From assembly GCA_964584025.1 (NCBI GenBank), contig CAZOYE010000001.1, positions 138,401 to 202,400 of the forward strand: DNA of 64,000 nt. Direction: 5' to 3'. Positions 2,985-60,182 of the stretch are shown here, piece by piece. A model generated the notes under the pieces. That model was not told the origin of the DNA, made no database searches, and worked only from the letters and a program-made list of their open reading frames with translations. How positions within the stretch are numbered: the first letter of the stretch is position 1; the number at the start of each line of letters is the position of its first letter. The position numbers were made by a program, and so were the translations under genes. This DNA comes from an uncultured Ignavibacteria bacterium. Lineage in GTDB: Bacteria > Zixibacteria > MSB-5A5 > CAIYYT01.

Positions 2985-5024
2985 TTATGGGCAACTGGCG
3001 CAAGGCGCGGGGCCGCCGCCAAAGATGAATGTTATCAGGAACACGGCGTCGGAGATCGTCACGATACCGTTGCAGTCGGCGTCACCGGCGATCACCGGGT
3101 CGGGCGCCGGCCCGCCGCCGAAGATGTAGGTGATCAGGTAGACCGCATCCGAGATCGTGATGATGCCGTTGCCGTCGGCGTCGCCGCAAGTGTAGTCGCA
3201 GGCATCGCCAACACCGTTGCTGTTCGAATCTTCCTGACCCGGGTTTGAGACATCAGGGCAGTTGTCGCAGGCATCGCCGACACCATCGCTGTCGGAATCC
3301 AGTTGGTCGTTATTGGCGTCTGCCGGACAATTGTCGCAGGCATCACCGAGGCTGTCGGCATCGGAATTGGCCTGTTCATGGTTTGAGACGCTCAGGCAAT
3401 TATCACAAGCATCGCCGATGAAATCGCCATCCGCATCCGCCTGCGAAGCGTTGGCGACCGACGGGCAATTGTCCAGACAACCTACGCCGTCGCCATCGCC
3501 GTCCTCACAACTCTCGATGAACGTCAGCGTTTGGTTGATTCCTACCATCGTAGTATCGAAGACAATGCCCGACGGCCACTCAATCCGCAGTGCTTCGACC
3601 ACCGATGCGTCCTTCAGGCCGAAGTGAACTTCAAACGAATTGTGCCCCAGGAAGGTGTTTTGTGCCGAGATGTCGCGCGTCTGCCAGACCGAGTCGCCGT
3701 CGATCGTCGCCTTGATCCAGACCCGTGCACCGATTGCCGCCCAGTTCGACTTCTGCCCCACCAGCTTCAGCTTGAGCCAGCCATTGGCGCCGGCGTAATC
3801 GTTGCGCAGGAGAAGACGCTTGTTCGCTCCGGAAGCCACCGCGAAGATGTCCATGTCACCGTCGTTGTCAATATCGCCGGCGGTGCCGCCCGATCCCTGC
3901 TGGCTGGTAGTGACATGATCGCCCATGAAATCGCCGAAGAACGTCCCGCCCGCGTTGCGGTAGTACTTATTCATGCCGATGTTGACCGTATAGCAATCCA
4001 GGTCGCCGTCGTTATCGAAATCTTGCCAGATTTGCGACAGCGACACCGTCTGATCGTCAACGATCTCCTCGCCGCCCACTTCGGTGTAGGTTCCGCCGTT
4101 ATTGACATAAAGGTCGTTGCTGCGCAAGCCGATGGCCACGCCGCCCCAGTTGGTGCGGTAGGCGTCCAAGTCCATGTCGTTGTCGATATCAATCCAATTC
4201 CACACCTGACCATCGCCCGGGTCGTTCGCGATCGGCGCCTGCAAGATGCGTTCGAAACCAGGGACTCCGGTCTCGATCAGCAGATTCTTGTAAAGATCAT
4301 CCAGTCCAGAAACCGACGAGGCCGGGCCGCTGCCGATGAAGAAGTCGAGGTCGCCATCGAGATCGTAATCGGCCCAGTTGCCGGAGGTATACGGCTTGAG
4401 CCCGGTAACGATAACGCCGGTGTCGATCACCTCGAAGGCGTAATCGGGCGGGCCCTGGTTACGGAGCATCCGGTTCGGCCGTTGCGGGTTGCCGACGAAT
4501 CCCGTGGGAAAGGTGATGACCAAATCAACGTAACCGTCGTCGTCGTAGTCACCCCAGGCCGGGCTCCAGCCGCGCAGGTCGGTTGTCCCCATCAGACTCG
4601 CCGAGACCTGGGTAAACGTCTCGTCGCCGTTGTTCTTATAGAGGGCGCTTCCGCCGGTACCCGCCAGAAGGCAGTCAAGGTCACCATCGTTGTCGTAGTC
4701 TGCCCAGGACGTTCCCAACGCGAAGAAGGTCCCGGTTGTGATCGGCGTGTTGGTAATGCGAGTAAATCCTCCCGCGCCATCTCCTTTGTAGAGCTTGGTT
4801 TGGTTCGGATCGACAACAACCAGGTCGAGATTCCCGTCATTGTTGTAATCGACGAACGCACACCCGGTGTAGGTTTGGTTGGTAACGTCGGAAACAACCG
4901 GGTTGCCGGCATCAGTAATTCTTGTGAATGCCGTCTGGGCACCGGCCGGTACTACACCGACCAGGCAGATGGCGGTAACCACGAGGGCGATCGGGACAAA
5001 TCGCTTTAGAGTAAGGTGGCGCAT
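2985..5024 (-). CDS. Secreted FG-GAP/VCBS-repeat protein with UnbV/ASPIC-like domain, thrombospondin type-3 repeats and C-terminal twin dockerin-like module
   Basis: ORF track 2985..5096, trimmed to ATG 5024 (MRHLTLKRFVPIALVVTAICLVGVVPAGAQ signal peptide, AGGAG upstream). It has repeated DYNNDGxLD / DYDNDGDLD / DFDNDGDLD / DIDNDGDMD FG-GAP calcium loops. The UnbV-like stretch is WLKLKLVGQKSNWAAIGARVWIKA...FLGHNSFEVHFGL. Five DxDxDGxGDACDNCP TSP3 units follow, and the protein ends in the twin-dockerin tag. Confidence 0.85.
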   Translation of the reverse strand: MRHLTLKRFVPIALVVTAICLVGVVPAGAQTAFTRITDAGNPVVSDVTNQTYTGCAFVDYNNDGNLDLVVVDPNQTKLYKGDGAGGFTRITNTPITTGTFFALGTSWADYDNDGDLDCLLAGTGGSALYKNNGDETFTQVSASLMGTTDLRGWSPAWGDYDDDGYVDLVITFPTGFVGNPQRPNRMLRNQGPPDYAFEVIDTGVIVTGLKPYTSGNWADYDLDGDLDFFIGSGPASSVSGLDDLYKNLLIETGVPGFERILQAPIANDPGDGQVWNWIDIDNDMDLDAYRTNWGGVAIGLRSNDLYVNNGGTYTEVGGEEIVDDQTVSLSQIWQDFDNDGDLDCYTVNIGMNKYYRNAGGTFFGDFMGDHVTTSQQGSGGTAGDIDNDGDMDIFAVASGANKRLLLRNDYAGANGWLKLKLVGQKSNWAAIGARVWIKATIDGDSVWQTRDISAQNTFLGHNSFEVHFGLKDASVVEALRIEWPSGIVFDTTMVGINQTLTFIESCEDGDGDGVGCLDNCPSVANASQADADGDFIGDACDNCLSVSNHEQANSDADSLGDACDNCPADANNDQLDSDSDGVGDACDNCPDVSNPGQEDSNSNGVGDACDYTCGDADGNGIITISDAVYLITYIFGGGPAPDPVIAGDADCNGIVTISDAVFLITFIFGGGPAPCASCP

Positions 5025-5275
5025 GCTCCTCTCCTTTAAAAGGGATAGCGGCTGGAATTGAAGACCATCGGGGGCGATCATACTGGTGCCATTCAACGGT
5101 CGCGAAAATTCGTTGTACTCAGGCTCTGAGACGAGCGGTGTTGCGCAATGGTCAATCGGATTACGCGAACGGCAAGGTTTGATTCGTAAATGGTCATTTC
5201 CGCCCGCGCGATTGGGCTTGATTCGCGCGCCGGGATCGCTAACTTGGACTCGGAGTCATTTATTCAGGAGCCGAC

Positions 5276-24987: not shown

Positions 24988-26898
24988 TCACGGACACGCG
25001 GCGCACGGCACAGCTCCGCCCCCAAAAATGTAATTGATCAAGTAGACAACATCGGAAATCGTCGTCACGCCCGTGCAGTCGACATCCCCGCGCTCGTCAG
25101 GATCAGGGGCCGGACCGCCGCCAAAGATGTAACTAATGATGAATACTGCGTCCGACACCGTAACGATCCCACTGGCGTCGGCATCCCCGCACAGAAAATC
25201 GGGGTCGGTAACGACTATCCACACGCTCTGCGTATCGGCGCTTGGCGGCAAGCCGGCGTCTAGGACCGCGATAGTGAAGTAGAAGGTAGCCTTGTAGCTC
25301 GGTGTGCCAGCCAGGATTCCCGCCGGGCTCTGAAACTCGCAGCCAAACGGCAGGTCACCGCCAAAGAACGACCAGCTAAACGGCCCGGTCCCACCGACAC
25401 ACTCAAACTGGTAATTGTAAGGTTCGCCGAAGTACGCATCCGGAAGCCGGGTCGCTGTCACATGTACCTTGCCGTCGCAGAAATCACCGATCCCGTCGCC
25501 GTTTTCATCCTCCTGGCCGGGATTCGGGTAGTCCGGGCAGTTATCGCAGGCGCTGCCGATCAAATCACCGTCAGGATCTTCTTGCGCCGGATTGGGGTTA
25601 AACACGCAGTTATCCTGCGTATTGAGCACCCCGTCGTTGTCGAAATCGCCGCCGTTCGCCACCGCATAAACCATGGCCAGCGAAGCACGCACCATCCGGT
25701 TCATGTATTCAAAATTCATGTAGCTGGTGCTGTCCTGCGGGCTGTGATAGACGTACGAGAAGATGTCCTCGATGATGAACAGCGCATCGTAACCATTCTG
25801 CGTGAACGGATAGTGGTCAGACCCCGAGCTGTTGCCGCTCAAGTAGCCGGTGATACCAAAGCTGGCCTGAGCGATGTTGGACCACCATTGCGCATAGAAC
25901 GGATCTGTGCCGTGATACACCGTTGCGGCATTGGAGTTGTACAGGAATGCGATCATGTCCATGTTGTGCATGACAAGTATCTGATCGCCCCGCGCCGCAG
26001 CACCATTGGCGTAGTGATATGATCCGTAGAGTCCAAATTCTTCAGCATCAAACGTAATGAACTTGAAAGTCACTTCGGTCGGCGTGTCGGCTAACGCCCG
26101 CGCCATTTCGAGCACGCCGGCCGTGCCGGAACCGTTGTCATCCGCCGCCGGTGAATTGTAGACGCCGTCATGATGCGCCCCTACGATAATCTCCAGGTCC
26201 GGATACGTCGTTCCGACCTTGACGCAAACGACATTGTAGCAGTTGTTCGTCTGGCCGTTGAAATACTGCTGCCAGCCGTCGAGATAAACGGAGTCGTAGC
26301 CAAAAGACTCAAACTTAGCTTTTATCCAGTCGCGCGCCAGGTAGATACTCGGCGTTCCGGCCAGCCGGCGATAGTAGCTCTGCAGCTTAGCGACGTACGA
26401 GTAGAGCGAGTCCTGCGAAATCGTCCCCAGCAACGATTCCAGAGCCGCAGAACTTGGCTGTGTTCTCGGAGCTGCCGTGCGCGCTTCGCGATAAGTAATC
26501 CGCAGCGTCGGCGGCAAAGCCATCAGAGAGGGAGTGAACTCGCTGCCCGGGTCGTAGCCTCCGGGCACAAAGAACAAACGCAAACCGCCTTCCTGAAACA
26601 CCAACTCGAACCGTGAGACGTTCTCATCGGTGGTGCGCAAATCGAGGGCGAGCTCTTCGCGGTTGACGTCGGTGAAAATCTTGACAGACTTCAATCCGGA
26701 ATCGATTAATTGCAAGGCCTGCTCCTGATCGACCAAAACCAGATAGCCGTCGCTGCTCTTGACGACGGCATCGAGTTTGAGTGATTGCAGTACTCGAGCG
26801 GCCCCAGCATCGCTGATCGTAACCTTATACAAATCAGCACCTTGCAAGACACAGGCTGTGAGGACGATTATAGCAGAAAGAAGTAGCAAACGTCTCAT
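24988..26898 (-). CDS. Secreted M28-family aminopeptidase with TSP3-like repeats and C-terminal twin dockerin-like module
   Basis: ORF track 24988..26979, trimmed to ATG 26898 (MRRLLLLSAIIVLTACVLQG). M28 zinc-site motifs are VGAHHDGV...ADDNGSGTAGVLEMARAL, FITFDAEEFGLYGS and GSDHYPF. Then come DNCVFNPNPAQEDPDGDLIGSACDNCPDYPNPGQEDENGDGIGDFCD and the tag. Confidence 0.85.
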   Translation of the reverse strand: MRRLLLLSAIIVLTACVLQGADLYKVTISDAGAARVLQSLKLDAVVKSSDGYLVLVDQEQALQLIDSGLKSVKIFTDVNREELALDLRTTDENVSRFELVFQEGGLRLFFVPGGYDPGSEFTPSLMALPPTLRITYREARTAAPRTQPSSAALESLLGTISQDSLYSYVAKLQSYYRRLAGTPSIYLARDWIKAKFESFGYDSVYLDGWQQYFNGQTNNCYNVVCVKVGTTYPDLEIIVGAHHDGVYNSPAADDNGSGTAGVLEMARALADTPTEVTFKFITFDAEEFGLYGSYHYANGAAARGDQILVMHNMDMIAFLYNSNAATVYHGTDPFYAQWWSNIAQASFGITGYLSGNSSGSDHYPFTQNGYDALFIIEDIFSYVYHSPQDSTSYMNFEYMNRMVRASLAMVYAVANGGDFDNDGVLNTQDNCVFNPNPAQEDPDGDLIGSACDNCPDYPNPGQEDENGDGIGDFCDGKVHVTATRLPDAYFGEPYNYQFECVGGTGPFSWSFFGGDLPFGCEFQSPAGILAGTPSYKATFYFTIAVLDAGLPPSADTQSVWIVVTDPDFLCGDADASGIVTVSDAVFIISYIFGGGPAPDPDERGDVDCTGVTTISDVVYLINYIFGGGAVPCAACP

Positions 26899-27173
26899 GG
26901 CAGACGACTCCGTGTTAAAGAACACCCCCTCCGAAGTATCATCGACAATATACGCCATGACGCATTTTTGTAAAGACACATTGTCGATATTGGAGTCCTG
27001 GCTCCACTACGTCGCGGAATGGAAATGTTCTCAGCCGCAGCGGTCTTCGCGGCCGCATCGAACCTCGCATTGCAGCCATGACGGCTGGAATTTCCTGTTG
27101 CATCCCTTTGTTGATTTCATATTTTCCCGCGTTACCGTGCTGAGGTCGACGACTTTAGACAAAGGAGTTTGAG

Positions 27174-29107: not shown

Positions 29108-29887
29108 CTAAAATACCGAAGCAAAATCAATCAGCTTCTCTTCGTCAATCAAGCTCACCGCCACGCATTCATGCGTTTCACACTCCCAGATAACATACTG
29201 GAATTTCGGACAGGAGCCGGCGAAGAGGGTCTTGCCATCGTGTTCAATGCGTTCGAAGTGCGACTTGTCGATCGTGTTCTTATCGAGCACAAATACCGAG
29301 ATGGCATCTCCCTTATAAGAGTAGTCGAGGTGCACCCGGTCATGATTATTGACATGGGCAATCGCCGCGCCCGCCAATTGGAACTGGCCGTCGGTCGCGG
29401 GAGCAAACAAATCGTCCGGCATCGCGCCGATGTGCTGCAGCGCCGCTTTGACCTCCGACGGATCGTGTGATTGCACGATGTACTGCATCACGTGATCGAG
29501 GCACTTGCTGTGCTCGTGCGCAAACGGATAGACCGCCTCAAGCACCGAGCCTTTCGATGAAAACGGATTGATCAAGATCAGCGCCACCAGCGCCGCCGCG
29601 GCAATCGGCAGAAACAAATACAGCACATTGCGGCTGCCCGCGGACGCCGCGCCACCCTGCTGGTCGATTTTGGCAATCTCCACCAGGATTCGCTTCTTCA
29701 ACTGGCTCGTCTCGCACGGCGAGTTGACTTTGCCGGCGATGACGCGATTGAATTGCTCTTCAAGATTGTATTTGTGGAGACAATCGCTGCAGTGTTCGAG
29801 ATGCTTTTGCAGGTCCTGACGGTCGGAGGCAGTCAGCTCTTCGTCAAGGTAGTCGTACAGCTTGGCTAATACTTCACGGCAATTCAC
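29108..29887 (-). CDS. Anti-sigma factor (zf-HC2 zinc finger, one TM helix, extracytoplasmic domain)
   Basis: ORF track. The N-terminus [44 protein letters not shown] carries the H-x3-C-x2-C motif. The TM helix is [18 protein letters not shown]. It overlaps the ECF sigma stop by 4 nt. Confidence 0.75.
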
Positions 29888-30471
29888 TGTTCCGCTTGTT
29901 CCTTTGCACGATCCTTGTCATTCGCATACTCCCAGAGCAGCTTCTGCAGGATCTTGCGCCCGCGGTGAAGTCGCGACTTGACGGTTCCAACCTGAATTCC
30001 CATGATGTCTGCAATCTCCTGGTAGGCAAAACCCTCGTTAAAGGCCAGCACCACCACCATCCGGAATTCTTCCGGAAGTTTCTCGATCGCCGCGACCACG
30101 TCGCGGTCGATGATCTTGTTGAAAAAGTCCTTCTCGGGATCGCTGCTCTCGGCAACCAACCCCGGCAACTGCGTGTGCATCACGCTGTCGTCGATGTCAT
30201 CGAAGGAAACGCTGGTTGACTCTTTCTGTCTCGCCCGGTAGTTGTTGATAAACGTGTTGGTCATAATCTTGAACAACCACGCCTTGGCATTGGTGCCTTT
30301 CTCGAACCGGTCGAAACTGCGGTAAGCCTTTAACAACGTCTCCTGGACTAGGTCCTCCGCATCGGAAGCGTTCTTGGTCATCCGGAGCGCCGTCCGATAC
30401 AGCGCATCCGTATGCACCATCGCTTCTTGCTCGAATTCGCTTTTCAGGCTCTTGGCTTTGTTGCGAAACAT
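29884..30471 (-). CDS. ECF-type RNA polymerase sigma factor (sigma-70 regions 2 and 4)
   Basis: ORF track. Region 2 reads [40 protein letters not shown]. Region 4 reads [42 protein letters not shown]. Confidence 0.9.
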
Positions 30472-30658
30472 GTTGTCGGTATCTAATGAACCAAGAGCCG
30501 TTTGTCAATAGGAACACCTGTCAGGCCTATCTGTTCCCGGTCGCCGCCCCCTTTTTTCGTGCCCTTTCTGTAGACTGAATCGGGCAATGTTATCCCCATC
30601 TCTCCGCCCCAGCCGCGATCCTGAAGCCGCTCCAATGTGAAACGGCAGCAACGGCGCC

Positions 30659-30687
30659 TTGACATAGGGGATTACGTGGTATATGTT
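30659..30687 (+). promoter_or_regulatory. Candidate sigma-70-type promoter for the secreted twin-domain protein
   Basis: I read TTGACA (30659-30664), a 17-nt spacer, then TATGTT (30682-30687), about 65 nt upstream of ATG 30754. This is a motif match only. Confidence 0.35.
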
Positions 30688-30753
30688 CAGACTGTCGAAT
30701 CATCGAATTTTGAGCACCGTACGCGACGTGAGCAGTCGTCTGGAGGGCTTGTT

Positions 30754-31857
30754 ATGCGATTCCCGTCCCTGGCATTATTGGCTGCGGTTCTTTTTGCCGT
30801 ATGCCCGGGCCGCCTGCCAGCGGAAGATTCCGGTTCAGAAGCGGCGGCCCGCAAGTGCGAGAGCGCCCATGAGGTCACTTTCTATCCCGGCATAATGGTT
30901 CTGCAAATCGAGGGACTGTCCACCTGCGGCCATATTGACGACTACAACGCTACCTGCCTCGGAAGCTATGACAATGGTGAAGATTACATGATCCGGCTTG
31001 AAGTGGAAGCGTTCATGTTCGCGATGATCGAATTGGACCCGCATGGGACGGCCTGGACCGGAATCGCCCTCGACGACGTCTGCCCCCCGGACGGCGACTG
31101 TTTGGCCATGAGCACCAAGACTTCCGGAGTGCCGCACTATACCCCGCCGGTTATGCTTGAACCCGGAGTCTACTACATCATCGTCGATACCTGGCCCACC
31201 CCCTATTGCATTCCTGAATTTGATGTCACCATCAGCGAGGTCTTCTATGACCCCTGGGGAGTTGACTGCGACCTCCCCATCGGTTTCGGAACCATTACCC
31301 CGGCCGTGCTCCCTTATACTGAAGGTCCGTTCTCGACCGCGGGTTCAGGTAACCAGTACACAGCCACCTGCCTGAGCGGCTACGATCTCGGTGAAGATCT
31401 GTTCTACTCTTTTGAGCTTACCAGTGCCCTGGGACTGAATTTCACTCTTGATCCCGGACAGGTTGCCGGCAGCGCCTTTCTGATCAGTTCTGACTGTCCC
31501 GTGGGCAGCAGCTGTATCGCTTCCGCAACCAGCAATCTCGCCGACCCGTTCGGAATCGAACAACTCGTGCTCCCTCCGGGAGAATACTATTTAATGATCG
31601 ATACCTGGTCGACCTCGACTCCGCTCACCAATGCCGTGCTTACTATCGAGTTCGCCTACCTCTGCGGCGATGCCGACGGCAGCCAGGTGATTAGCATCTC
31701 CGATGCGATCTACGTCATCGGCTACATCTTCGGAGGTGGACCTCCGCCGGTGCCGCTCCGGGCCGGTGATGCGGATACCAACGGCATCGTAAACATCTCC
31801 GATGCCATCTACTTGATCAACTACATCTTCGCCGGCGGTCCGCCCCCGTGCTCCTAA
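30754..31857 (+). CDS. Secreted protein with two PPC-like (pre-peptidase C-terminal-like) domains and C-terminal twin dockerin-like module
   Basis: ORF track 30637..31857, trimmed to ATG 30754 (MRFPSLALLAAVLFAVCPG, GGAGGG upstream). There are two roughly 130-aa internal repeats: YNATCLGSYDNGEDYMIRLEV...PGVYYIIVDTW, and YTATCLSGYDLGEDLFYSFELT...PGEYYLMIDTW. The tag follows. Confidence 0.75.
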   Translation: MRFPSLALLAAVLFAVCPGRLPAEDSGSEAAARKCESAHEVTFYPGIMVLQIEGLSTCGHIDDYNATCLGSYDNGEDYMIRLEVEAFMFAMIELDPHGTAWTGIALDDVCPPDGDCLAMSTKTSGVPHYTPPVMLEPGVYYIIVDTWPTPYCIPEFDVTISEVFYDPWGVDCDLPIGFGTITPAVLPYTEGPFSTAGSGNQYTATCLSGYDLGEDLFYSFELTSALGLNFTLDPGQVAGSAFLISSDCPVGSSCIASATSNLADPFGIEQLVLPPGEYYLMIDTWSTSTPLTNAVLTIEFAYLCGDADGSQVISISDAIYVIGYIFGGGPPPVPLRAGDADTNGIVNISDAIYLINYIFAGGPPPCS

Positions 31858-40987: not shown

Positions 40988-43492
40988 CTACTTCATCAAA
41001 ACCATCTTGCGCTGCTCGCTGAACCCGTCAGTCTGCAGGCGATAGAAGTATATCCCCGAAGCCATATTGGCGGCATCAAACGTCACCTGGTGCGCGCCGG
41101 CCGCCATCGGTCCGTCAACCAGCCGCGCCACTTCCTGCCCGAGAATGTTGTAGACGCTCAACGTCACCGGCGAGCTCTTCGGCAACGCGAAGGAAATCGT
41201 CGTGGTCGGGTTGAACGGATTCGGATAGTTCTGGCTCAGCGCAAAGTCGGTCGGCAAAGCCGTCGCACCCCGCTCAAGCTCTTCGATCTTGCCTTCCGTC
41301 AACTCTTCTTCATCCGCAATCGCAACGATCGCACTCGGCGCCACCGCCGGCAAAGCGACCACCGCGCCATTCGGCAAAGCCGCATACAGCCCGAACGCCG
41401 GACCGTTGTTGTTGGCCGCCGGATTCAGGAATCCCGAAGCGAACACTACGGCCGCGCCGCCACCCAGGCCGCTGAGATCGGCGGTGAACGAAGCCACTCC
41501 CGTCGTGCTGTTGCCCGGGGTAACGGTCAGGGTGTAGTTTCTCGCAAAGAAGAACTTGTAGTTGGAAAACTCACCGTAGGTCAGGTCATTGACGGCGCGA
41601 TAGGTGAAATTGCCGAGACGCGCAAAGACGTCAACGGTCGGCGCATCGGTCGCGCCATGGAATACGATCAGGTTGACACCTAAACGCGAGCGGCCCTCTT
41701 CGAGAACGCCATCAACCGGGAACAGCTTGAAGCCGATATCCTCGCCATCCGGGTTGGCCGCAAAGCCGGAACCCAGAATGCCATTGGCGATGGCTACGTA
41801 AGTCTGATTCGCTTCGAGCGTCACTGGGATCGTCGCGATCGCCTGCGCCGAGGACGAGCTATTGCCCGGAGCGATCTGGAGATTCAACTGAACTCCGGCC
41901 GGCACATCGATAAACGGCGTCGCCGTGCGGAACGCGAAGTTGTCGATCAGGGGAGTCGCGCCATCGTTAACATAAACATCAACGACCGACGCAGCCGGAT
42001 CGGCGGCGTTGTGAATCACCTGCAAGCGAGCGGTCGCCTGATAGGCAGGGAAGGCCACGACCGTGCCATTCGCCAGCGCTGCAAACAACCCGAACGCCGG
42101 ACCATTGTTGTTGGCCGCCGGGTTCAGGAAACCTGAAGCGAAGACGACCGCCGAGCCGCCGTTCAGCCCGGTCAGATCCGCTTCAAACGAAGCCACGACC
42201 GTGTTGTTGTCGTCGCCGGGAGTGACATCGAGAACGTACGTTCGCGGAGCCAGCGAAGCGTAGCCGCCGAAGTCTCCGTACGAGGCATTATTGACAACCG
42301 GACCAAACGGCCAGCCGCGCGCAACGATGTCAACGTTCGGCGCATCGGTGGCGCCGTGGAATCCGATGACATCCGTGCGATAGAACCAGGAAGCGCGCTC
42401 GCGAATGCCGTCCTTGGCAAAGAGGCTGAAGCTGATGCTGCGGCCATCGGGATTCGCGGCAAAGCCGGAACCGAGAACGCCGTTGGCAATGGCGACGTAG
42501 GTCTTCCCGTCTTCCAGCGTCACCGGGATCGTCGCGATCGCCTGCGCCGACGACGAGCTGTTACCCGGCGCAATCTGGATGTTCAACTGGACACCAGCGG
42601 GAACCGTGCGAAATTCGGTGGCTTCGCGGAAATCGAAATCGTTCTCGAAGAGATTATCGTTAACATAGATATCGACTGAGGCCGCAGCCGGATCAGCGGC
42701 ATTGTGAATCACCTGCAGGCGCGCGGTCGGCACGACCACGGGCAGAGCCGCGACAGCGCCGTTCGGCAGCGCCGCAAACAGGCCGAAAGCCGGGCCGTTG
42801 TTGTTGGCGGCCGGGTTCAAAAACCCGGAGGCAAACACGACGGCAGCGCCGCCCTTGAGACCATTGAGGTCGGCTTCGAACGAGGCTACCACCGTCGAGG
42901 CATCATTGCCGGGGGTCACGTCAAGAATGTACTTGCGCGCCGCTACGGGGCGATAAGCGCTGAATTGGCCATACGTAAGATCATTGAAGAGCGGAGTCTT
43001 TCCACCCTTGCGGATGCGCACGTCAACGGTCGGCGCATCGGTCGCGCCGTGAAAGGCGATTAGATCAACGACCTGATTCCAGTTGGCCTTCTCGCGCAAG
43101 CCATCGCGCGCGAATAACTGGAAACTGATCGCTGCGCCGTCAGGATTGGCGGCAAAACCGGAACCCAGGACGCCGTTGGCGATCGCAACATAGGTGCGAT
43201 TAGCGGTCAGCGTCACGGGGATTGTGGCGATTGCCTCCGCCGAGGAACTCGAGTTGCCCGGAGCAATCTGGACATTCAATTGAACGCCGGCCGGTACAGT
43301 GCGATATTCGGTAGCCTCCCGGAAAGAAAAATCATCTTCAAAAAGTGCGTCATTAACATAGATGTCGACGACGGCAGCCGCCGGATCGGCAGCGTTGTGA
43401 ATCACTTGCAGGCGCGCATCGGCGGCCTGCGCTACCACGGGCAGGGCGAACACGGTCGCCAGAAGCACCGCCAGAAATCTCAGTTTCAACAT
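40988..43492 (-). CDS. Secreted protein with three tandem ~230-aa DUF4397-like repeats and a T9SS-type (Por secretion tail) C-terminal sorting domain
   Basis: ORF track. The signal peptide is MLKLRFLAVLLATVFALPVVAQA. Three units begin ARLQVIHNAADPAA..VD.YVND (aa 26, 257, 488) and end ASGFLNPAANNNGPAFGL.AAL.NG. The C-terminus FALSQNYPNPFNPTTTISFALPKSSPVTLSVYNILGQEVARLVDG...ASGIYFYRLQTDGFSEQRKMVLMK is a typical T9SS CTD. Confidence 0.85.
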   Translation of the reverse strand: MLKLRFLAVLLATVFALPVVAQAADARLQVIHNAADPAAAVVDIYVNDALFEDDFSFREATEYRTVPAGVQLNVQIAPGNSSSSAEAIATIPVTLTANRTYVAIANGVLGSGFAANPDGAAISFQLFARDGLREKANWNQVVDLIAFHGATDAPTVDVRIRKGGKTPLFNDLTYGQFSAYRPVAARKYILDVTPGNDASTVVASFEADLNGLKGGAAVVFASGFLNPAANNNGPAFGLFAALPNGAVAALPVVVPTARLQVIHNAADPAAASVDIYVNDNLFENDFDFREATEFRTVPAGVQLNIQIAPGNSSSSAQAIATIPVTLEDGKTYVAIANGVLGSGFAANPDGRSISFSLFAKDGIRERASWFYRTDVIGFHGATDAPNVDIVARGWPFGPVVNNASYGDFGGYASLAPRTYVLDVTPGDDNNTVVASFEADLTGLNGGSAVVFASGFLNPAANNNGPAFGLFAALANGTVVAFPAYQATARLQVIHNAADPAASVVDVYVNDGATPLIDNFAFRTATPFIDVPAGVQLNLQIAPGNSSSSAQAIATIPVTLEANQTYVAIANGILGSGFAANPDGEDIGFKLFPVDGVLEEGRSRLGVNLIVFHGATDAPTVDVFARLGNFTYRAVNDLTYGEFSNYKFFFARNYTLTVTPGNSTTGVASFTADLSGLGGGAAVVFASGFLNPAANNNGPAFGLYAALPNGAVVALPAVAPSAIVAIADEEELTEGKIEELERGATALPTDFALSQNYPNPFNPTTTISFALPKSSPVTLSVYNILGQEVARLVDGPMAAGAHQVTFDAANMASGIYFYRLQTDGFSEQRKMVLMK

Positions 43493-49410: not shown

Positions 49411-49827
49411 CTATCGACAATACTCCGGCGCTGGTCCTGACGAGAAGATGTAAGTAATCAAGAATACCGCATCCGAGATCGTGATCATGCCGGAGCAGTC
49501 GGCGTCGGCGGCTTGAAGATTCGACGGCGCAGGACCGCCGCCGAAAATGTAGGCGATCAGAAAGACCGCATCCGAGATATTCACGAAGCCGTTGCCGTCC
49601 ACATCGCCCGCGGCGTAGTTGCGCAATCCCTGGTCGGCAAGAAATCCGGAAACGACGCGGCCGGAGAACCCCGCGACGTTCTGGCCGATGATCGAATCAA
49701 GCCGCAGTGCCCCTGAGGCAGCGCGGCCGGAACCGGCGGCGCCTGCCTGGTGACGCGAAGCGGCGGTGAGAGAGACGGCTGAAAGGGCAGCGAGCAGCAG
49801 CGCAATGATGACAGTCTTCATGGTCAA
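49411..49827 (-). CDS. Small secreted protein consisting of a signal peptide, a short linker and the twin dockerin-like module
   Basis: ORF track. The signal peptide MTMKTVIIALLLAALSAVSLTAA and a roughly 50-aa Gly/Ala/Ser-rich linker precede the tag GDVDGNGFVNISDAVFLIAYIFGGGPAPSNLQAADADCSGMITISDAVFLITYIFSSGPAPEYCR. The start overlaps the upstream stop by 4 nt. Confidence 0.7.
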   Translation of the reverse strand: MTMKTVIIALLLAALSAVSLTAASRHQAGAAGSGRAASGALRLDSIIGQNVAGFSGRVVSGFLADQGLRNYAAGDVDGNGFVNISDAVFLIAYIFGGGPAPSNLQAADADCSGMITISDAVFLITYIFSSGPAPEYCR

Positions 49828-51452
49828 TACTGCGTTCGAATGTATACCACCTGCAGCGCACCGTTACTGAAATCCACCACACCCGCAGAGAGCGCTGTCG
49901 AGCGGACGTTGCCGTAAATCGTAATCGTAGCGGCCGAAGCGACCGGGATGACATCCGAAATCGAAATCACCGTATTCATGCCGACGCTGGCGGTCGGTGA
50001 AGAGATGCGCGCCTCCCCGTAACGGCCGAATCCGGAAGGTGTCGTCGAAATCGACATCTGCGCGATCTCGTTGCCGCCGAGGTTGGCCGTGCCGTTCATG
50101 AATACCAGCAGGAATCCCGCAGCCGGAGCGTCGATCGTCGCTGTCATCCAGGTGACGACGGTCGTGCTTACCGAAACCAGCGTGCCGCCGGTCGTGAAGG
50201 CCAAGCCGGGTTCGTCCGAGGTCTTGGTGGCGTCGATGATGTTGTTCACGATATGGCGTTCGATGATCGAGTTGCTAGCGATATCCGCGCCGGTAAGCGA
50301 CTCGTCGACCACTGTGCTGCCGCTCACCGAATTGGCAGCCAGGTCGGCGCCGGTGATGGTGCCGTCGGAAATATGATAGCCGGCGAGCTGCGCGGGACCG
50401 ACATCATTGAAACCGATCGAGGCATTCTTGATGTCGACGCCCTGAATCGTCTCGTCGGTAATCATCGCGCTGGTGATCGCCAGTCCGGAGAGATGTACTG
50501 ACTCGATCGATGCCGGGGCAATCTTGGCGCCGGTGATAGTCGAGTCTTCGAGATCGACGGCGGTCAATGTGCCGTCGGTAATGTTGGCGCCGGTGAAGGC
50601 GGAAGAGGCCAGGTGCTCGGCGGCGATCGTGCCGGAAGCGATCTTCTGCCCCGTAATTGTCGAGTCCTGCAGGTCGGCGGCCTGAAGCGAGCCATCGGCG
50701 ACGCCGGTCGAATTGACCGCGCCGGAACTGATGTGGCGCGAGGCAATCACGGAATCGGGCAGCTTGGGATCAGTGACGGAGGCGTCAGCAATCTTTCCTG
50801 ATGTCACCGCACCGTCGGCGATCTTTGTTGAAGCAACGCTGCCATCAGCGAGATCGGCGGTTGAAATGCCGCCATCGGAAATCTCAGAAGAGTCTACTTC
50901 AACAGCCGGTAAGCGCTCGGGAGCAATTACACCAGTCGCAATCTCGGAGGCGTCCAGAGTGAAGGGCCGATGCGCCATCGGATCGTTTTCGTGCGTAGAA
51001 ATCTTTTCGTCAACCAGCGCGCTGTCGGCGTAGTGCGAAGCCGGAAAGCCTTCCAGGGCGAGCGCGTTGCCGGCGATAAAAGAAAACACCGCCGAACCGA
51101 TCATGTGGCGCGGCGAAAATTCCGGTTCGCTTTCGAAGGCAATGCCGAGCCAGAGCGGCGAGTGATTAAATAGCGCCGGCGAAAACGGCACCACCGAACC
51201 GAGATAAGCATGCATTAAGCCGTCCGTTAATGTCACGACTTGTGTCTCGGTCCAGAGGGCGGCGCCGAAGGTTGAATCGTTGTAGATTGAAAAGGTAATG
51301 CTGTAGCTGCCGTCGGCGTAGGGCGCGCCGGTTGAGTCTTTGAGACTTCCCTGATAACTCAACACGGGATTGATCGCGGCCGCGACGGGGCTGGCCGGAA
51401 CGCAGAGATTAGCGATGATCAAACATAGAGCGCCGATAACAAACGATCTCAA
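49824..51452 (-). CDS. Secreted fibre/adhesin-like protein with about 21 tandem decapeptide repeats
   Basis: ORF track; TTG start with GGAGG 4 nt upstream. The signal peptide is MRSFVIGALCLIIANLCVPASPVAAA, and the N-domain reads LSYQGSLKDSTGAPYADGSYSITFSIYNDSTFGAALWTETQVVTLTDGLMHAYLG. The decapeptide units run DGSVASTKIA DGAVTSGKIA DASVTDPKLP ... DGTITGADLA, and the protein ends in a globular C-domain. Confidence 0.75.
   Translation of the reverse strand: MRSFVIGALCLIIANLCVPASPVAAAINPVLSYQGSLKDSTGAPYADGSYSITFSIYNDSTFGAALWTETQVVTLTDGLMHAYLGSVVPFSPALFNHSPLWLGIAFESEPEFSPRHMIGSAVFSFIAGNALALEGFPASHYADSALVDEKISTHENDPMAHRPFTLDASEIATGVIAPERLPAVEVDSSEISDGGISTADLADGSVASTKIADGAVTSGKIADASVTDPKLPDSVIASRHISSGAVNSTGVADGSLQAADLQDSTITGQKIASGTIAAEHLASSAFTGANITDGTLTAVDLEDSTITGAKIAPASIESVHLSGLAITSAMITDETIQGVDIKNASIGFNDVGPAQLAGYHISDGTITGADLAANSVSGSTVVDESLTGADIASNSIIERHIVNNIIDATKTSDEPGLAFTTGGTLVSVSTTVVTWMTATIDAPAAGFLLVFMNGTANLGGNEIAQMSISTTPSGFGRYGEARISSPTASVGMNTVISISDVIPVASAATITIYGNVRSTALSAGVVDFSNGALQVVYIRTQY
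50217..50960 (-). repeat. Intragenic 30-nt (decapeptide) tandem repeat array, degenerate, about 21-24 units
   Basis: A period-10 pattern, D/S-G/S-x-[IV]-x-x-x-x-[IL]-x, is read from the translated protein at about aa 165-412. It explains the cluster of spurious overlapping ORFs listed between 50071 and 51033 on both strands. Confidence 0.7.
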
Positions 51453-53052: not shown

Positions 53053-53985
53053 ATGAAGATCATGAGCTGGTTCTTACAGACTCGGACAGCCCGGATCGTA
53101 TCTGCAGCCGCCGTAAATCTGCTTCTGCTGCTTGCACCGTCCACTCTTTTCGGTAATTCTGAAGAGAATTCGCTTCGTGACCTGTACATCAACTTCCGAG
53201 CCGAGAAGACCGTGTTGATGACAGCTGAGCCGATCTTCTTTACCGGAGAATGCGAAAATCGAGGCAATTCTGAAATAAGGTACAGATACGATGACTTGTG
53301 GAAGATTCGTATTGTCGATGCCGACGGCAACGAAATGCCCTTTCGGGGCAGAGAGATAATCAAACACTACACCCCCAAGTACGACCAAGCGGGCAGCCTC
53401 ATAGACACTCGTCTGCGACTGTTTCCTGGCAACAGCGGCCCACTCGGTGAAAAGTGTATTAGCGACGAGTTCGGCAATGGACAAGGTGGCTTCGATCTTT
53501 ATCTTCCGCCAGGAGAATACCGGGTCTTTCACAAGATCTGTCCGTCCGACACTATCCTTCTGACAGTAAAGGACCCAGTAGATTCGCTCGAGTACATCGC
53601 TATGCGAGAGCTGACATCGGCGATCGACAGCACTTATCGCCGGCTCGGTCGGTCATCGCAGCGATTGAAGTTCTACGAAGAGTTCTATGAGGAATTCCGG
53701 AACACTATCTACGCTCCCCGTGCTTTGCGAAACCTTATAAGTATTTCACCCATAGAAGTGCCCGAATACAGCGAGTCCAAACGTCAACACTACGTACGTG
53801 AATTGATCACTCGCTTTCCAGAGTCTCAGTTCAATTTCAACGCAATGATCAACTTGAAAATAGAGTACGTGCCCGCAGCCGCCCGCCTGAGCTTTGCCCA
53901 GGCGCTCAGAACCCTGAGGAAACACTTGATCAATCTGGCTCAGCGAGACGAAGCCGAGCAATATGCCCGCGAGCTTGAGAAGTGA
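53053..53985 (+). CDS. Secreted hypothetical protein (beta-rich N-half, helical C-half)
   Basis: ORF track 53029..53985. Likely starts are ATG 53053 or 53062 (MKIMSWFLQTRTARIVSAAAVNLLLLLAPSTLFG signal peptide), after GGAGG. I recognise no family motif. Confidence 0.6.
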   Translation: MKIMSWFLQTRTARIVSAAAVNLLLLLAPSTLFGNSEENSLRDLYINFRAEKTVLMTAEPIFFTGECENRGNSEIRYRYDDLWKIRIVDADGNEMPFRGREIIKHYTPKYDQAGSLIDTRLRLFPGNSGPLGEKCISDEFGNGQGGFDLYLPPGEYRVFHKICPSDTILLTVKDPVDSLEYIAMRELTSAIDSTYRRLGRSSQRLKFYEEFYEEFRNTIYAPRALRNLISISPIEVPEYSESKRQHYVRELITRFPESQFNFNAMINLKIEYVPAAARLSFAQALRTLRKHLINLAQRDEAEQYARELEK

Positions 53986-59930: not shown

Positions 59931-60003
59931 TCCCCGGTAGCTCAGTCGGTAGAGCAGCTGACTGTTAATCAGCGGGTCGCTGGTTCGAGCCCGGCCCGGG
60001 GAG
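59931..60003 (+). tRNA. trnN: tRNA-Asn (anticodon GTT), CCA not encoded
   Basis: Folded by hand. The acceptor stem is tccccgg/ccgggga, the D-arm gctc-agtcggta-gagc, and the anticodon arm gctga-ctGTTaa-tcagc. The variable loop is gggtc, the T-arm is gctgg-ttcgagc-ccggc, and the discriminator is g. Confidence 0.9.
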
Positions 60004-60182
60004 CTTTTTATTGGCAAAGGCGGGGAGAGGGCGAGAGTTGCGGAGTCGGGCCAACGAATCTCGACTTGACAAATCCACAAAATCTACTAATTTTTCGGCC
60101 AGCAGGATTATCTGCCGCCCCATCCAGCCGATTCAGACAATACGGTCGATCCAGCGACGAAAACGAGTACGGAGGAAGAAAC

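Follow-up and report, generated by a model that had tools for sequence, protein, structure and literature searches.

Within the window, the whole 64-kb stretch of DNA analysed here, exactly five open reading frames (ORFs) share a C-terminal module of 64-70 residues, attached to cargoes that are otherwise unrelated. The first-pass annotation of this DNA had proposed one common C-terminal module on five proteins, and the translated ORFs end exactly in the sequences that it quoted. The five tagged genes, and one further secreted protein used for comparison, are as follows.

2985..5096, minus strand: cargo gene 1, probable start ATG 5024 (MRHLTLKRF..., signal peptide); FG-GAP_3, UnbV_ASPIC and thrombospondin-type Ca repeats
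24988..26979, minus strand: cargo gene 2, probable start ATG 26898 (MRRLLLLS..., signal peptide, lipobox-like LTAC); Peptidase_M28 and TSP_3
30637..31857, plus strand: cargo gene 3, probable start ATG 30754 (MRFPSLALL...); cargo without a Pfam match
49411..49827 (ORF) and 49411..49821 (protein), minus strand: tag-only gene, 136 aa from ATG 49821
53982..56462, plus strand: cargo gene 5, probable start ATG 53994, giving the 822 aa of the public-assembly call; marginal NHL match
40988..43492, minus strand: comparison protein, DUF4397 repeats and a T9SS type A sorting domain, without a cohesin

When read from internal ATG codons, all five tagged window proteins begin with signal-peptide-like N-termini. 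The tag-only protein consists of a signal peptide, a short conserved motif and the module; its 136-aa form is also the form called in public assemblies (Logan contigs), and it belongs to a recurrent family of 130-185 aa (relatives P0304, P0315, P0319 and P0324). Searches with Pfam and NCBIfam recovered the FG-GAP/UnbV/TSP3 and M28 cargoes named in the first-pass annotation, and its NHL call for 53982..56462 proved marginal (21.6 bits, cut-off 20). For 30637..31857 the twin PPC-like reading was not reproduced, Dockerin_1 being the sole Pfam family matched in that ORF. The T9SS-type C-terminal domain (CTD) assigned earlier to 40988..43492 is recognised by both Por_Secre_tail (E 3.7e-10) and TIGR04183 (45.2 bits, cut-off 23). 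Pfam detected no cohesin among ten secreted-looking window neighbours, and matched no family in the neighbours of 542, 382 and 318 aa.

The modules themselves are listed below; the coordinates first given for them took in the stop codons, and the modules proper end before these.

2988..3188, minus strand: module 1, 67 aa, CGDADGNG...PAPCASCP; HMM E 7e-39; Dockerin_1 27.7 bits alone; AF2 pLDDT 89.5
24991..25191, minus strand: module 2, 67 aa; HMM E 1.4e-36; Dockerin_1 25.6 bits
31663..31854, plus strand: module 3, 64 aa, without the loop-2 Cys and the second tail Cys; HMM E 8e-36; Dockerin_1 29.9 bits
49414..49614, minus strand: module 4, 67 aa, without C1 (the Cys before loop 1) and with a single tail Cys; HMM E 2.9e-38; Dockerin_1 44.0 bits
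56250..56459, plus strand: module 5, 70 aa, without C1 at -1, with Cys at -5 and -7; HMM E 1.7e-38; Dockerin_1 20.1 bits

An HMM built from the five copies matched the six-frame translation of the window exactly five times (E 7e-39 to 8e-36), the next match having an E-value of 3.3. Pairwise identity among the modules is 65-74%, and the earlier count of cysteines in them, before loop 1 in three, within loop 2 in four and near the terminus in all five, was reproduced. Identity at third codon positions is only 0.32-0.68, which rules out recent duplication or gene conversion as the source of the likeness. Because third-position identity is low, the similarity must be old and maintained at the protein level.

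Judged from its sequence and predicted fold, the module is a genuine type-I-like dockerin of two Ca-loop-helix repeats, as its description as dockerin-like had anticipated. In the five copies and in a column census of 186 modules, both repeats contain a loop of the form D1-x-D3-x-N/S5-G6...D12 followed by a helix, and these conserved ligand positions suggest that the module binds Ca2+. Four of the five isolated modules exceed the Pfam Dockerin_1 (PF00404) gathering score of 22.9 bits, with module 5 just under it at 20.1, and 61/75 relatives match the family at E<=1e-3. The AF2 model of the module (pLDDT 89.5) places helices at residues 20-32, 40-43 and 53-65, and the best 33 matches of this model in a Foldseek search of the PDB are all dockerins; TM scores of the dockerin matches are 0.64-0.77 and rmsd values 1.7-2.3 A, with 4uyp_B at TM 0.77 and rmsd 2.3. 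The likeness to clostridial type I dockerins (PF00404; PDB 4UYP_B, 1OHZ_B, 3UL4_B) extends to the duplicated loop-helix segment with its internal two-fold similarity, the pattern of Ca ligands (loop residues 1, 3, 5 and 12), a fold of three helices and the usual C-terminal position. Unlike them, the module has four conserved cysteines and GGPxP caps after both helices, and presents a hydrophobic I-S...I-N/T helix face where the clostridial domains present S-T...K-R; it is found on non-CAZyme cargo, in a diderm FCB host and at a far higher frequency per genome.

The tag is also distinct from two other C-terminal addresses. Sorting domains of the T9SS are beta-sandwiches that are cleaved on export. 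The type A domain (TIGR04183 / PF18962) resembles the tag as a C-terminal address on many unrelated secreted proteins of the same genomes, whereas the tag is alpha-helical in the AF2 model, is a predicted Ca-binding dockerin and is matched by the sorting-domain models in 0/5 cases. NCBIfam holds no tag-specific model. The nearest, dockerin_GC (NF041540, GC-type dockerin domain-anchored protein), likewise describes a lineage-specific C-terminal dockerin-like 'anchor', yet the tag is not a member, reaching only 16 bits (E 0.012) against a cut-off of 29.

Outside the window the tag is abundant, with 9,790 representative proteins bearing it at E<=1e-10 among 1.84 billion searched. It is concentrated in one lineage, Zixibacteria-like metagenome-assembled genomes (MAGs), as the first-pass annotation had supposed in calling the system lineage-specific, and these MAGs encode about one tagged gene per 13-19 kb, or roughly 5-8% of their genes. 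Besides the five tags of the 64-kb window, related loci spanning 1.25 Mb contain 98 tags that are not seeds, and 524 kb of loci selected by cohesin contain 27; in the same related-loci DNA, 173 ORFs carry the tag and nine a T9SS sorting domain. In 179/185 cases no more than 12 aa separate the tag from the stop codon. In one protein the module is internal and a T9SS sorting domain follows it, and arrays of up to 12 copies in tandem are found in more distant relatives. By a crude test, signal-peptide-like N-termini are present in 142/164 tagged ORFs (87%) compared with 36-43% of controls, an enrichment that had been expected of tagged proteins. In a census of 75 tagged proteins, TSP_3, FG-GAP, SBBP, He_PIG, M43, PAD_porph, S8 and beta-lactamase are the most frequent cargo families, and no glycoside hydrolase is among the 25 commonest Pfam families. 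The literature searched yielded no paper treating Zixibacteria and dockerins together.

The cysteines and caps to which the first-pass annotation drew attention are kept among homologues. Across the 186 modules of the census, C1 is retained in 144/186, the loop-2 Cys in 170/186 and the two tail cysteines in 161 and 157/186; the GGPxP cap after each of the two helices is strongly conserved, the two helices hardly vary across hundreds of paralogues and genomes, and the C-terminal end of the module is fixed as C-x-x-C-P. Among 317 distinct terminal modules, 220 have four cysteines, 42 have two and none has zero or one. In all 42 two-Cys modules one cysteine lies in the tail and the other is C1 or the loop-2 Cys, and wherever the loop-2 Cys is lost a single tail Cys is left. 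The distant tandem-array relatives hold strictly two cysteines per module, being either C1 and one tail Cys only, or the loop-2 Cys and an equal number of tail cysteines only. This co-loss points to two internal disulfides per module, and covariation supports the pairing of C1 with a tail Cys.

One of the two putative disulfides probably represents, in covalent form, the dockerin 'intramolecular clasp', in which a residue at position -1 to -3, before a conserved Gly, contacts a C-terminal residue and stabilises the Ca-bound fold (PMC3821032). This reading of the C1-tail pair follows from the placement of C1 at position -1 and from the joining of position -1 to the C-terminus in the known clasp. 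It weakens the earlier contention that a Cys before loop 1 lies beyond what canonical dockerins can account for. Known clasps are formed by stacking, hydrophobic or electrostatic contacts, and that study (Slutzki et al. 2013, PMC3821032) nowhere uses the word 'cysteine'. The module shares with the described clasp a residue at -1 and a partner position, here a Cys, after the last cap; it differs in the putative disulfide and in a second candidate staple, to loop 2. This loop-2-to-tail disulfide is geometrically unproven, since the tail of a canonical dockerin adjoins loop 1.

No cohesin was found in the 64-kb window, either by Pfam on secreted-looking ORFs or by cohesin profiles on six-frame ORFs, in agreement with the first reading of the sequence. 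That reading had also called the receptor unknown, a view that fails for the clade: the loci of the two related MAGs sampled best contain five cohesin-family ORFs, and cohesin-fold modules are encoded in many metagenomes too. In a large collection the family comprises 80 proteins, 36 of them with the Cys-dockerin tag, about 25 with PF18962 and seven with a precomputed PF00963 match; its named members come from Zixibacteria, GN15 and the FCB group. Most members score below the Pfam Cohesin (PF00963) gathering threshold of 24.1 bits. P0363 (38.4 bits) and P0139 (27.1 bits) exceed it, and P0128 (22.9), L039 (18.9), L136 (16.9), L012 (15.3) and L021 (14.9 bits) do not. A single-sequence jackhmmer search with CipA cohesin 2 gave E-values of 0.19-7 only, a lead; the profile of the new family matched PDB cohesin sequences weakly (E 0.008-0.12 over the first 60 residues), and hhalign against CipA cohesin 2 returned a probability of 50%. 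Because these profile and hhalign matches are weak, a fold search was needed to settle cohesin identity. The AF2 model of candidate P0128 (pLDDT 91.6) has cohesins as all of its best 50 Foldseek matches in the PDB (1g1k_A at E 6e-10 and TM 0.76; target TM 0.65-0.79). In their predicted structure, the candidate partners are cohesin jelly-roll beta-sandwiches.

The architecture of these proteins ties them to the tag and, apparently, to type IX secretion. T9SS sorting domains are found on 83/89 metagenomic cohesin ORFs, and some cohesin proteins end in a cassette of cohesin, second-type dockerin, X and T9SS sorting domain. A conserved protein of ~290 aa is a cohesin fused to the Cys-dockerin tag, and its gene has a conserved neighbourhood in four independent assemblies. 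The cohesin of P0363 is likewise fused to a Cys-type tag; P0363-like canonical cohesins were absent from all loci retrieved. Of four cohesin-dockerin proteins known only from Logan, none (0/4) came from SRR14787577-80, the samples with window-matching contigs. Cohesin ORFs are far rarer than tags (5 vs 173 in 1.25 Mb), and each of the 5 + 89 cohesin ORFs, drawn from a sample of 1.8 Mb of loci, encodes one cohesin. The first-pass annotation had held that clear cohesin scaffoldins elsewhere would make this a conventional cohesin-dockerin system. The cohesins found do move the interpretation towards an ordinary cohesin-dockerin pair, though as single-cohesin proteins only, with no multi-cohesin scaffoldin among the 94 cohesin ORFs in those loci.

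We therefore favour, with a probability of about 0.6, a reading in which the tag of the five window proteins is the disulfide-reinforced dockerin of a non-cellulosomal cohesin-dockerin display network. The window's own genome would then also encode cohesins, and the candidate partners would bind the tag specifically. The window proteins would be exported by Sec from a Zixibacteria-like (FCB-group) bacterium. In each module, one staple would join C1 at position -1 to a C-terminal tail Cys as a covalent clasp, a second would join the Cys of Ca loop 2 to the other tail Cys; each helix is followed by a Gly-Gly-Pro-x-Pro cap. The tag would most likely act as dockerins do, docking its diverse cargoes non-covalently onto cohesin modules. 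These cargoes, which account for about 5-8% of genes, are peptidases, beta-propellers and repeat proteins of an adhesin-like kind. Single-cohesin carriers with the T9SS cassette are presumably exported by the type IX system and attached to the surface, and the ~290-aa cohesin-Cys-dockerin fusion could be an adaptor or a polymerising unit.

Other explanations account for parts of this evidence. The near-constant extreme C-terminal position of the tag and its fixed C-x-x-C-P end would suit a C-terminal sorting or export signal, like the T9SS CTD or PEP-CTERM, read by a secretion or attachment machine and unrelated to the cohesin folds. The presence of the tag on hundreds of unrelated cargoes, its predominance over T9SS sorting-domain ORFs in the same DNA (173 vs 9), its great excess over cohesins and the lack of a cohesin in the window lean the same way. 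We nevertheless consider a mainly sorting role unlikely, since fold and HMM both identify a dockerin, the tag is fused to a cohesin in a conserved core gene, one internal module precedes a T9SS sorting domain, tandem arrays of up to 12 copies are unlike sorting signals, and a candidate machine was not found. The cohesin-free window is also compatible with a non-cellulosomal dockerin that has no partner, is stabilised by Ca2+ and disulfides, and binds surface glycan, EPS or mineral or merely stabilises its cargo. Dockerin-like modules without cohesins are recorded from many genomes (Peer et al. 2009, as cited in PMC8542988), and the cargoes here often contain Ca-binding adhesin-like repeats (TSP_3, FG-GAP). 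This seems improbable to us, given that helices near-invariant across hundreds of paralogues and genomes suggest one conserved protein interface, and that the tag is found together with cohesin folds and also fused to them.

The first-pass annotation raised the further prospect of anchoring through the cysteines, by intermolecular disulfides to a surface receptor or between tagged proteins. The loop-2 Cys and one tail Cys would lie at opposite ends of a canonical dockerin, and a head-to-tail intermolecular bond would also account for their joint loss. Even and balanced cysteine numbers within each module fit internal disulfides instead; C1 sits exactly at the known clasp position (PMC3821032), the tandem-array relatives keep strictly two cysteines per module, and AF2 models the tail within the domain at a pLDDT of about 80. 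Covalent anchoring thus appears very unlikely. Least credible is a conventional cellulosome degrading plant polysaccharide: dockerins and cohesins are both encoded, but the cargo census, with its lack of glycoside hydrolases among the 25 commonest families, largely rules this out, and the absence of multi-cohesin scaffoldins from the 94 cohesin ORFs and the presumed anchoring through a T9SS sorting domain instead of SLH or sortase speak against it too.

The display network might also take a more speculative form, a long shot in our estimation, in which tagged proteins dock on CTD-bearing cohesin carriers in the periplasm and cross the T9SS translocon as a complex. Cargoes would acquire their fold and their disulfides in the periplasm before docking, either on the carriers or on chains of the ~290-aa cohesin-dockerin adaptor, so that a few CTD carriers (about one per 140 kb) could display a tag proteome >10x larger. 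If true, this would be a piggy-back form of T9SS secretion not known before, by which one lineage sends the products of 5-8% of its genes to its surface.

Dockerins are common outside cellulosomes, and their function there is obscure. The present clade offers a well-defined test case: in each genome hundreds of secreted proteins that are not CAZymes bear one near-invariant, putatively stapled dockerin, the candidate cohesins are of three types, and cohesins show an apparent link to type IX secretion. If binding is confirmed, an uncultured phylum would organise much of its surface or extracellular proteome by cohesin-dockerin docking, and the way in which Sec-only tagged proteins cross the outer membrane would become a concrete question. 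A covalent form would also be added to the known clasps, and could help in engineering stable cohesin-dockerin pairs.

The closest precedent for the favoured display network is the published inference of a cellulosome-like system in the Cloacimonadota 'Ca. Stygibacter' (Williams et al. 2021, PMC8542988). There, signal-peptide enzymes including peptidases bear C-terminal dockerins, and a cohesin protein is attached via a T9SS sorting domain. The two cases have in common an origin in FCB-group candidate phyla, C-terminal dockerins and a cohesin protein with a T9SS sorting domain. 'Ca. Stygibacter', however, has a single scaffoldin of 3,755 aa, in which tandem cohesins are combined with CBMs, and a small set of dockerin enzymes, GH18 and GH57 among them, whereas the present system shows single-cohesin proteins, a cohesin-dockerin fusion and a very large tag repertoire; Cys-stapled dockerins were not reported there (PMC8542988). 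Non-cellulosomal cohesin and dockerin modules are also on record (Peer et al. 2009, cited in PMC8542988). Such pairs resemble the present one in their use outside cellulose degradation and in often having single cohesins, and differ in that those organisms hold few modules per genome, against a tag of proteome scale here. The Foldseek matches of the module and P0128 include structures of this kind, PDB 2XDH from Archaeoglobus and 2OZN/2JH2 from C. perfringens.

The 64-70-residue, Cys-rich tag that ends five proteins of the window belongs to the dockerin family by profile, loop motif and predicted fold, as the first-pass annotation had suggested; its binding of Ca2+ and of cohesin is a prediction. 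Translation recovered all five ORFs named in that annotation, each with the quoted module at its C-terminus (the coordinates take in stop codons), and an HMM of the five copies, run on all six reading frames of the window, matched just these five (E 7e-39 to 8e-36; next best match E 3.3). Four of the five isolated modules pass the gathering score of Pfam Dockerin_1, with the fifth just below it. In each half, the EF-hand ligand pattern D1-x-D3-x-N/S5-G6...D12 precedes a helix, SDAVYLIxYIF. An AlphaFold2 model of the tag (122 aligned sequences, pLDDT 89.5) places three helices in dockerin order, and its best 33 matches among solved structures are all dockerins, led by 4uyp_B (TM 0.77, rmsd 2.3 A over 72 columns). 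Two other assignments were rejected: no T9SS sorting-domain match from Pfam or NCBIfam falls on the tags, and the NCBI GC-type dockerin scores 16 bits against a cut-off of 29.

Over the module, identity to the first copy is 65-74%, and the remainders of the proteins (the cargoes) are unrelated. Third-codon-position identity between copies is 0.32-0.68, which rules out recent duplication as the source of this similarity and shows that it is kept at the protein level. Pfam and NCBIfam bore out most of the cargo calls made earlier, recovering FG-GAP_3 and UnbV_ASPIC with thrombospondin-type repeats in one protein, Peptidase_M28 with TSP_3 in another, and a marginal NHL match; the 'PPC-like' label for 30637..31857 was not reproduced. 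The same searches found the T9SS sorting domain previously noted on 40988..43492. Read from an internal ATG, all five tagged proteins begin with what looks like a signal peptide. By eye, the signal peptide of the M28 peptidase at 24988..26979 (-) ends in a lipobox-like L-T-A-C, and this protein might therefore be a lipoprotein.

Tagged proteins are concentrated in Zixibacteria-like MAGs. When 5.8 billion proteins were searched with the tag profile, there were 529 matches among those below about 1.8 times the query length (no more than 127 aa for the 69-aa tag), a limit that keeps long tagged proteins and large scaffoldins out of this list and of the cohesin list described below. Every named match comes from 'Candidatus Zixiibacteriota' or 'candidate division Zixibacteria', and a search of 1.84 billion representatives found 9,790 proteins matching the tag profile at E<=1e-10. 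A scan of one genome per species gave at least 536 tag matches; the best 80 are shared among about a dozen MAGs, each of which has many. Three density estimates agree on one tag per 13-19 kb, or ~5-8% of genes: the 64-kb window has 5 tags, related loci totalling 1.25 Mb have 98 non-seed ones, and loci picked on other grounds have 27 in 524 kb. This share may extend to whole genomes. In the 1.25 Mb of related loci, only 9 ORFs bear a T9SS sorting domain.

Enrichment of tagged proteins for secretion signals, raised as a check in the first-pass annotation, was seen in a crude test: 142 of 164 tagged ORFs scored positive for a signal peptide, compared with 36-43% of long ORFs that lack the tag, and several of the test-negative ORFs have obvious signal peptides by eye. 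The commonest cargo families among 75 tagged proteins are TSP_3, FG-GAP, SBBP propellers, He_PIG, peptidases M43 and S8, PAD_porph, PQQ_2 and beta-lactamase, with no glycoside hydrolase family in the top 25.

The features that the dockerin family had been held not to explain, the caps and the Cys positions, are conserved in these relatives. In 1.28 Mb of fetched DNA we found 186 tag modules, ending within 12 residues of the stop codon in 179 of 185 cases; their G-G-P-x-P caps are about 95% conserved, and the counts for the four Cys are 144, 170, 161 and 157 of the 186. Four Cys occur in 220 of 317 distinct terminal modules and two in 42, and none has zero or one. Every one of these 42 pairs a single tail Cys with either C1 (the Cys before loop 1) or the loop-2 Cys, and neither C1 with the loop-2 Cys nor the two tail Cys alone was found among them. 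Where the loop-2 Cys is absent there is always a single tail Cys, at the first tail position. Some distant relatives form tandem arrays of up to 12 modules in which each module has just two Cys, C1 and one in the tail; in another distant type, which lacks C1, the loop-2 and tail Cys are equal in number.

Because Cys are lost together and their numbers balance within each module, we infer two internal disulfides in the tag, one joining C1 to the tail and one joining loop 2 to the tail. C1 lies at position -1 relative to a conserved Gly, and in known dockerins position -1 and a C-terminal residue form a stabilising 'intramolecular clasp' (PMC3821032). Given this location, the putative first disulfide is best taken for a covalent clasp. 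More doubt attaches to the loop-2 staple, since the canonical dockerin tail lies near loop 1 rather than loop 2.

Variants of the module also occur. Three proteins (P0218, which is MBI4122260.1 from Parcubacteria, P0219 and P0225) have 8-12 tandem dockerin-like modules with a Cys pair in each; one such array, in a Parcubacteria MAG, is annotated 'peptidoglycan-binding protein', and the Cys-clasped type thus extends past Zixibacteria. Two ORFs from related loci (L001:16957-17988 and L013:8735-10201) each combine a divergent internal dockerin-like module with a canonical terminal one. A third, L017:3-1406, has a degenerate internal tag copy and, after roughly 230 further residues, a T9SS sorting domain, so two C-terminal 'addresses' can coexist in one protein.

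No cohesin was found among the secreted-looking proteins of the window scanned with Pfam, or in its six-frame ORFs by two cohesin-profile searches, and the earlier remark that the window holds no cohesin-like partner stands. The receptor, then considered unknown, now has candidates: related genomes encode cohesin-fold proteins, some fused to the tag. Starting from C. thermocellum CipA cohesin 2 (query sequence verified), jackhmmer gave weak pointers to two ORFs in related loci, both with a sub-threshold Pfam Cohesin match and a T9SS sorting domain, which have in common a C-terminal cassette of roughly 490 aa. Examples in the fetched loci are:

L021:13409-15619: cohesin, second dockerin-like type (Doc'), unfamiliar domain, T9SS sorting domain
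L039:4615-7281: the same four domains
L081-L160: the same four domains

Of 89 cohesin ORFs in 80 metagenomic loci, 83 have a single architecture, namely a variable Ig/PKD/LamG-like N-terminal region, one cohesin, Doc', a further domain and the T9SS sorting domain. Against PDB sequences, Doc' best matches type I dockerins (top 3ul4_B, E 9e-4); its paired 13-residue loops read GDLNLNG...ASDVNADG.... The N-terminal regions joined to the cassette differ greatly and reach about 2,000 aa.

An iterated cassette search added three cohesin ORFs from the related loci, all ending in the Cys-dockerin tag. The family has 80 members in a large protein collection among matches of at most 379 aa (218-aa query), of which 36 bear the tag, most being ~290-aa proteins composed of signal peptide, cohesin and tag. 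PF18962 falls on about 25 of the 80 and precomputed PF00963 on 7; named members are from Zixibacteria, GN15 or the 'FCB group'. An AlphaFold2 model of one ~290-aa member (pLDDT 91.6, pTM 0.83) has only cohesins among its best 50 PDB matches. By profile, P0139 exceeds the Pfam Cohesin cut-off, and P0363 joins a full-length Pfam cohesin (38.4 bits) to a Cys-type tag. The ~290-aa gene has the same neighbours in four independent assemblies (L080, L161, L162 and L164), in the order divergent POTRA/ShlB-like outer-membrane protein, response regulator, cohesin-dockerin gene, DUF899/AhpC and EamA, and therefore behaves as a conserved core gene.

A non-cellulosomal display network of cohesins and dockerins is the reading best supported by sequence and models. 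In it, cargo exported by Sec would bear the disulfide-stapled dockerin, single-cohesin proteins would be exported by the T9SS and probably also attached to the surface, and the small cohesin-dockerin protein could serve as an adaptor or chain-former. Three cohesin subtypes and two dockerin types would be available for pairing. Surface attachment by the T9SS is established in Bacteroidota, and we extend it to the cohesin proteins by analogy. Two points do not fit this network neatly: tags outnumber cohesin ORFs by about 35:1, and Sec-only tagged proteins would have to pass the outer membrane. The tag might instead be a sorting signal, a ligand-binding or stabilising module that has no partner, or a covalent anchor acting through its Cys; fusions of cohesin to the tag, tandem modules and balanced numbers of Cys make each of these less likely. 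The observation behind the first-pass annotation thus holds, and its interpretation as lineage-specific surface display or sorting holds only in part.

A display network of this kind is not a new kind of system. The closest published precedent found is an inferred cellulosome-like complex of Cloacimonadota, in which a tandem-cohesin scaffoldin with a T9SS sorting domain receives enzymes through their C-terminal dockerins (PMC8542988). NCBI already labels named relatives of the tag 'dockerin type I domain-containing'. Our literature search found no paper that names both Zixibacteria and dockerin, and no mention of Zixibacteria in the best-ranked cellulosome, cohesin and scaffoldin literature. 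Relative to the cited sources and NCBI annotation, what appears new is the conserved four-Cys and GGPxP architecture, the reading of the first putative disulfide as a covalent clasp, the use of the tag at proteome scale for cargo other than CAZymes, the T9SS cassette with its single cohesin and the conserved cohesin-dockerin fusion. The significance would grow if binding, or a tie to T9SS export, proved true.

Several smaller features of the window deserve record. The tag-only protein at 49411..49821 (-) is not an orphan, having relatives in a recurrent 130-185 aa family (P0304, P0315, P0319, P0324) built of signal peptide, a short motif (..GEQIxWQV..GG...FxLxGTxGQ...GYWQ) and tag. Its start region shares 4 nt with the stop of the gene at 49824..51452 (-), which suggests co-translation; that gene encodes a 542-aa secreted protein that has no Pfam family and a long run of ~11-residue 'ITDGxLTxxDL / SITGAKIA'-like repeats. 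At 29108..30471 (-), N-terminal sequences read by eye resemble an ECF sigma factor and a zinc-finger anti-sigma factor, a pair that lies divergently upstream of the tagged gene 30637..31857. Finally, a tRNA-Asn (GTT) occupies 59931-60004 (+), and identical 46-82 nt pieces are repeated at about 332-nt spacing in one related locus (L014) and occur once in another (L040).
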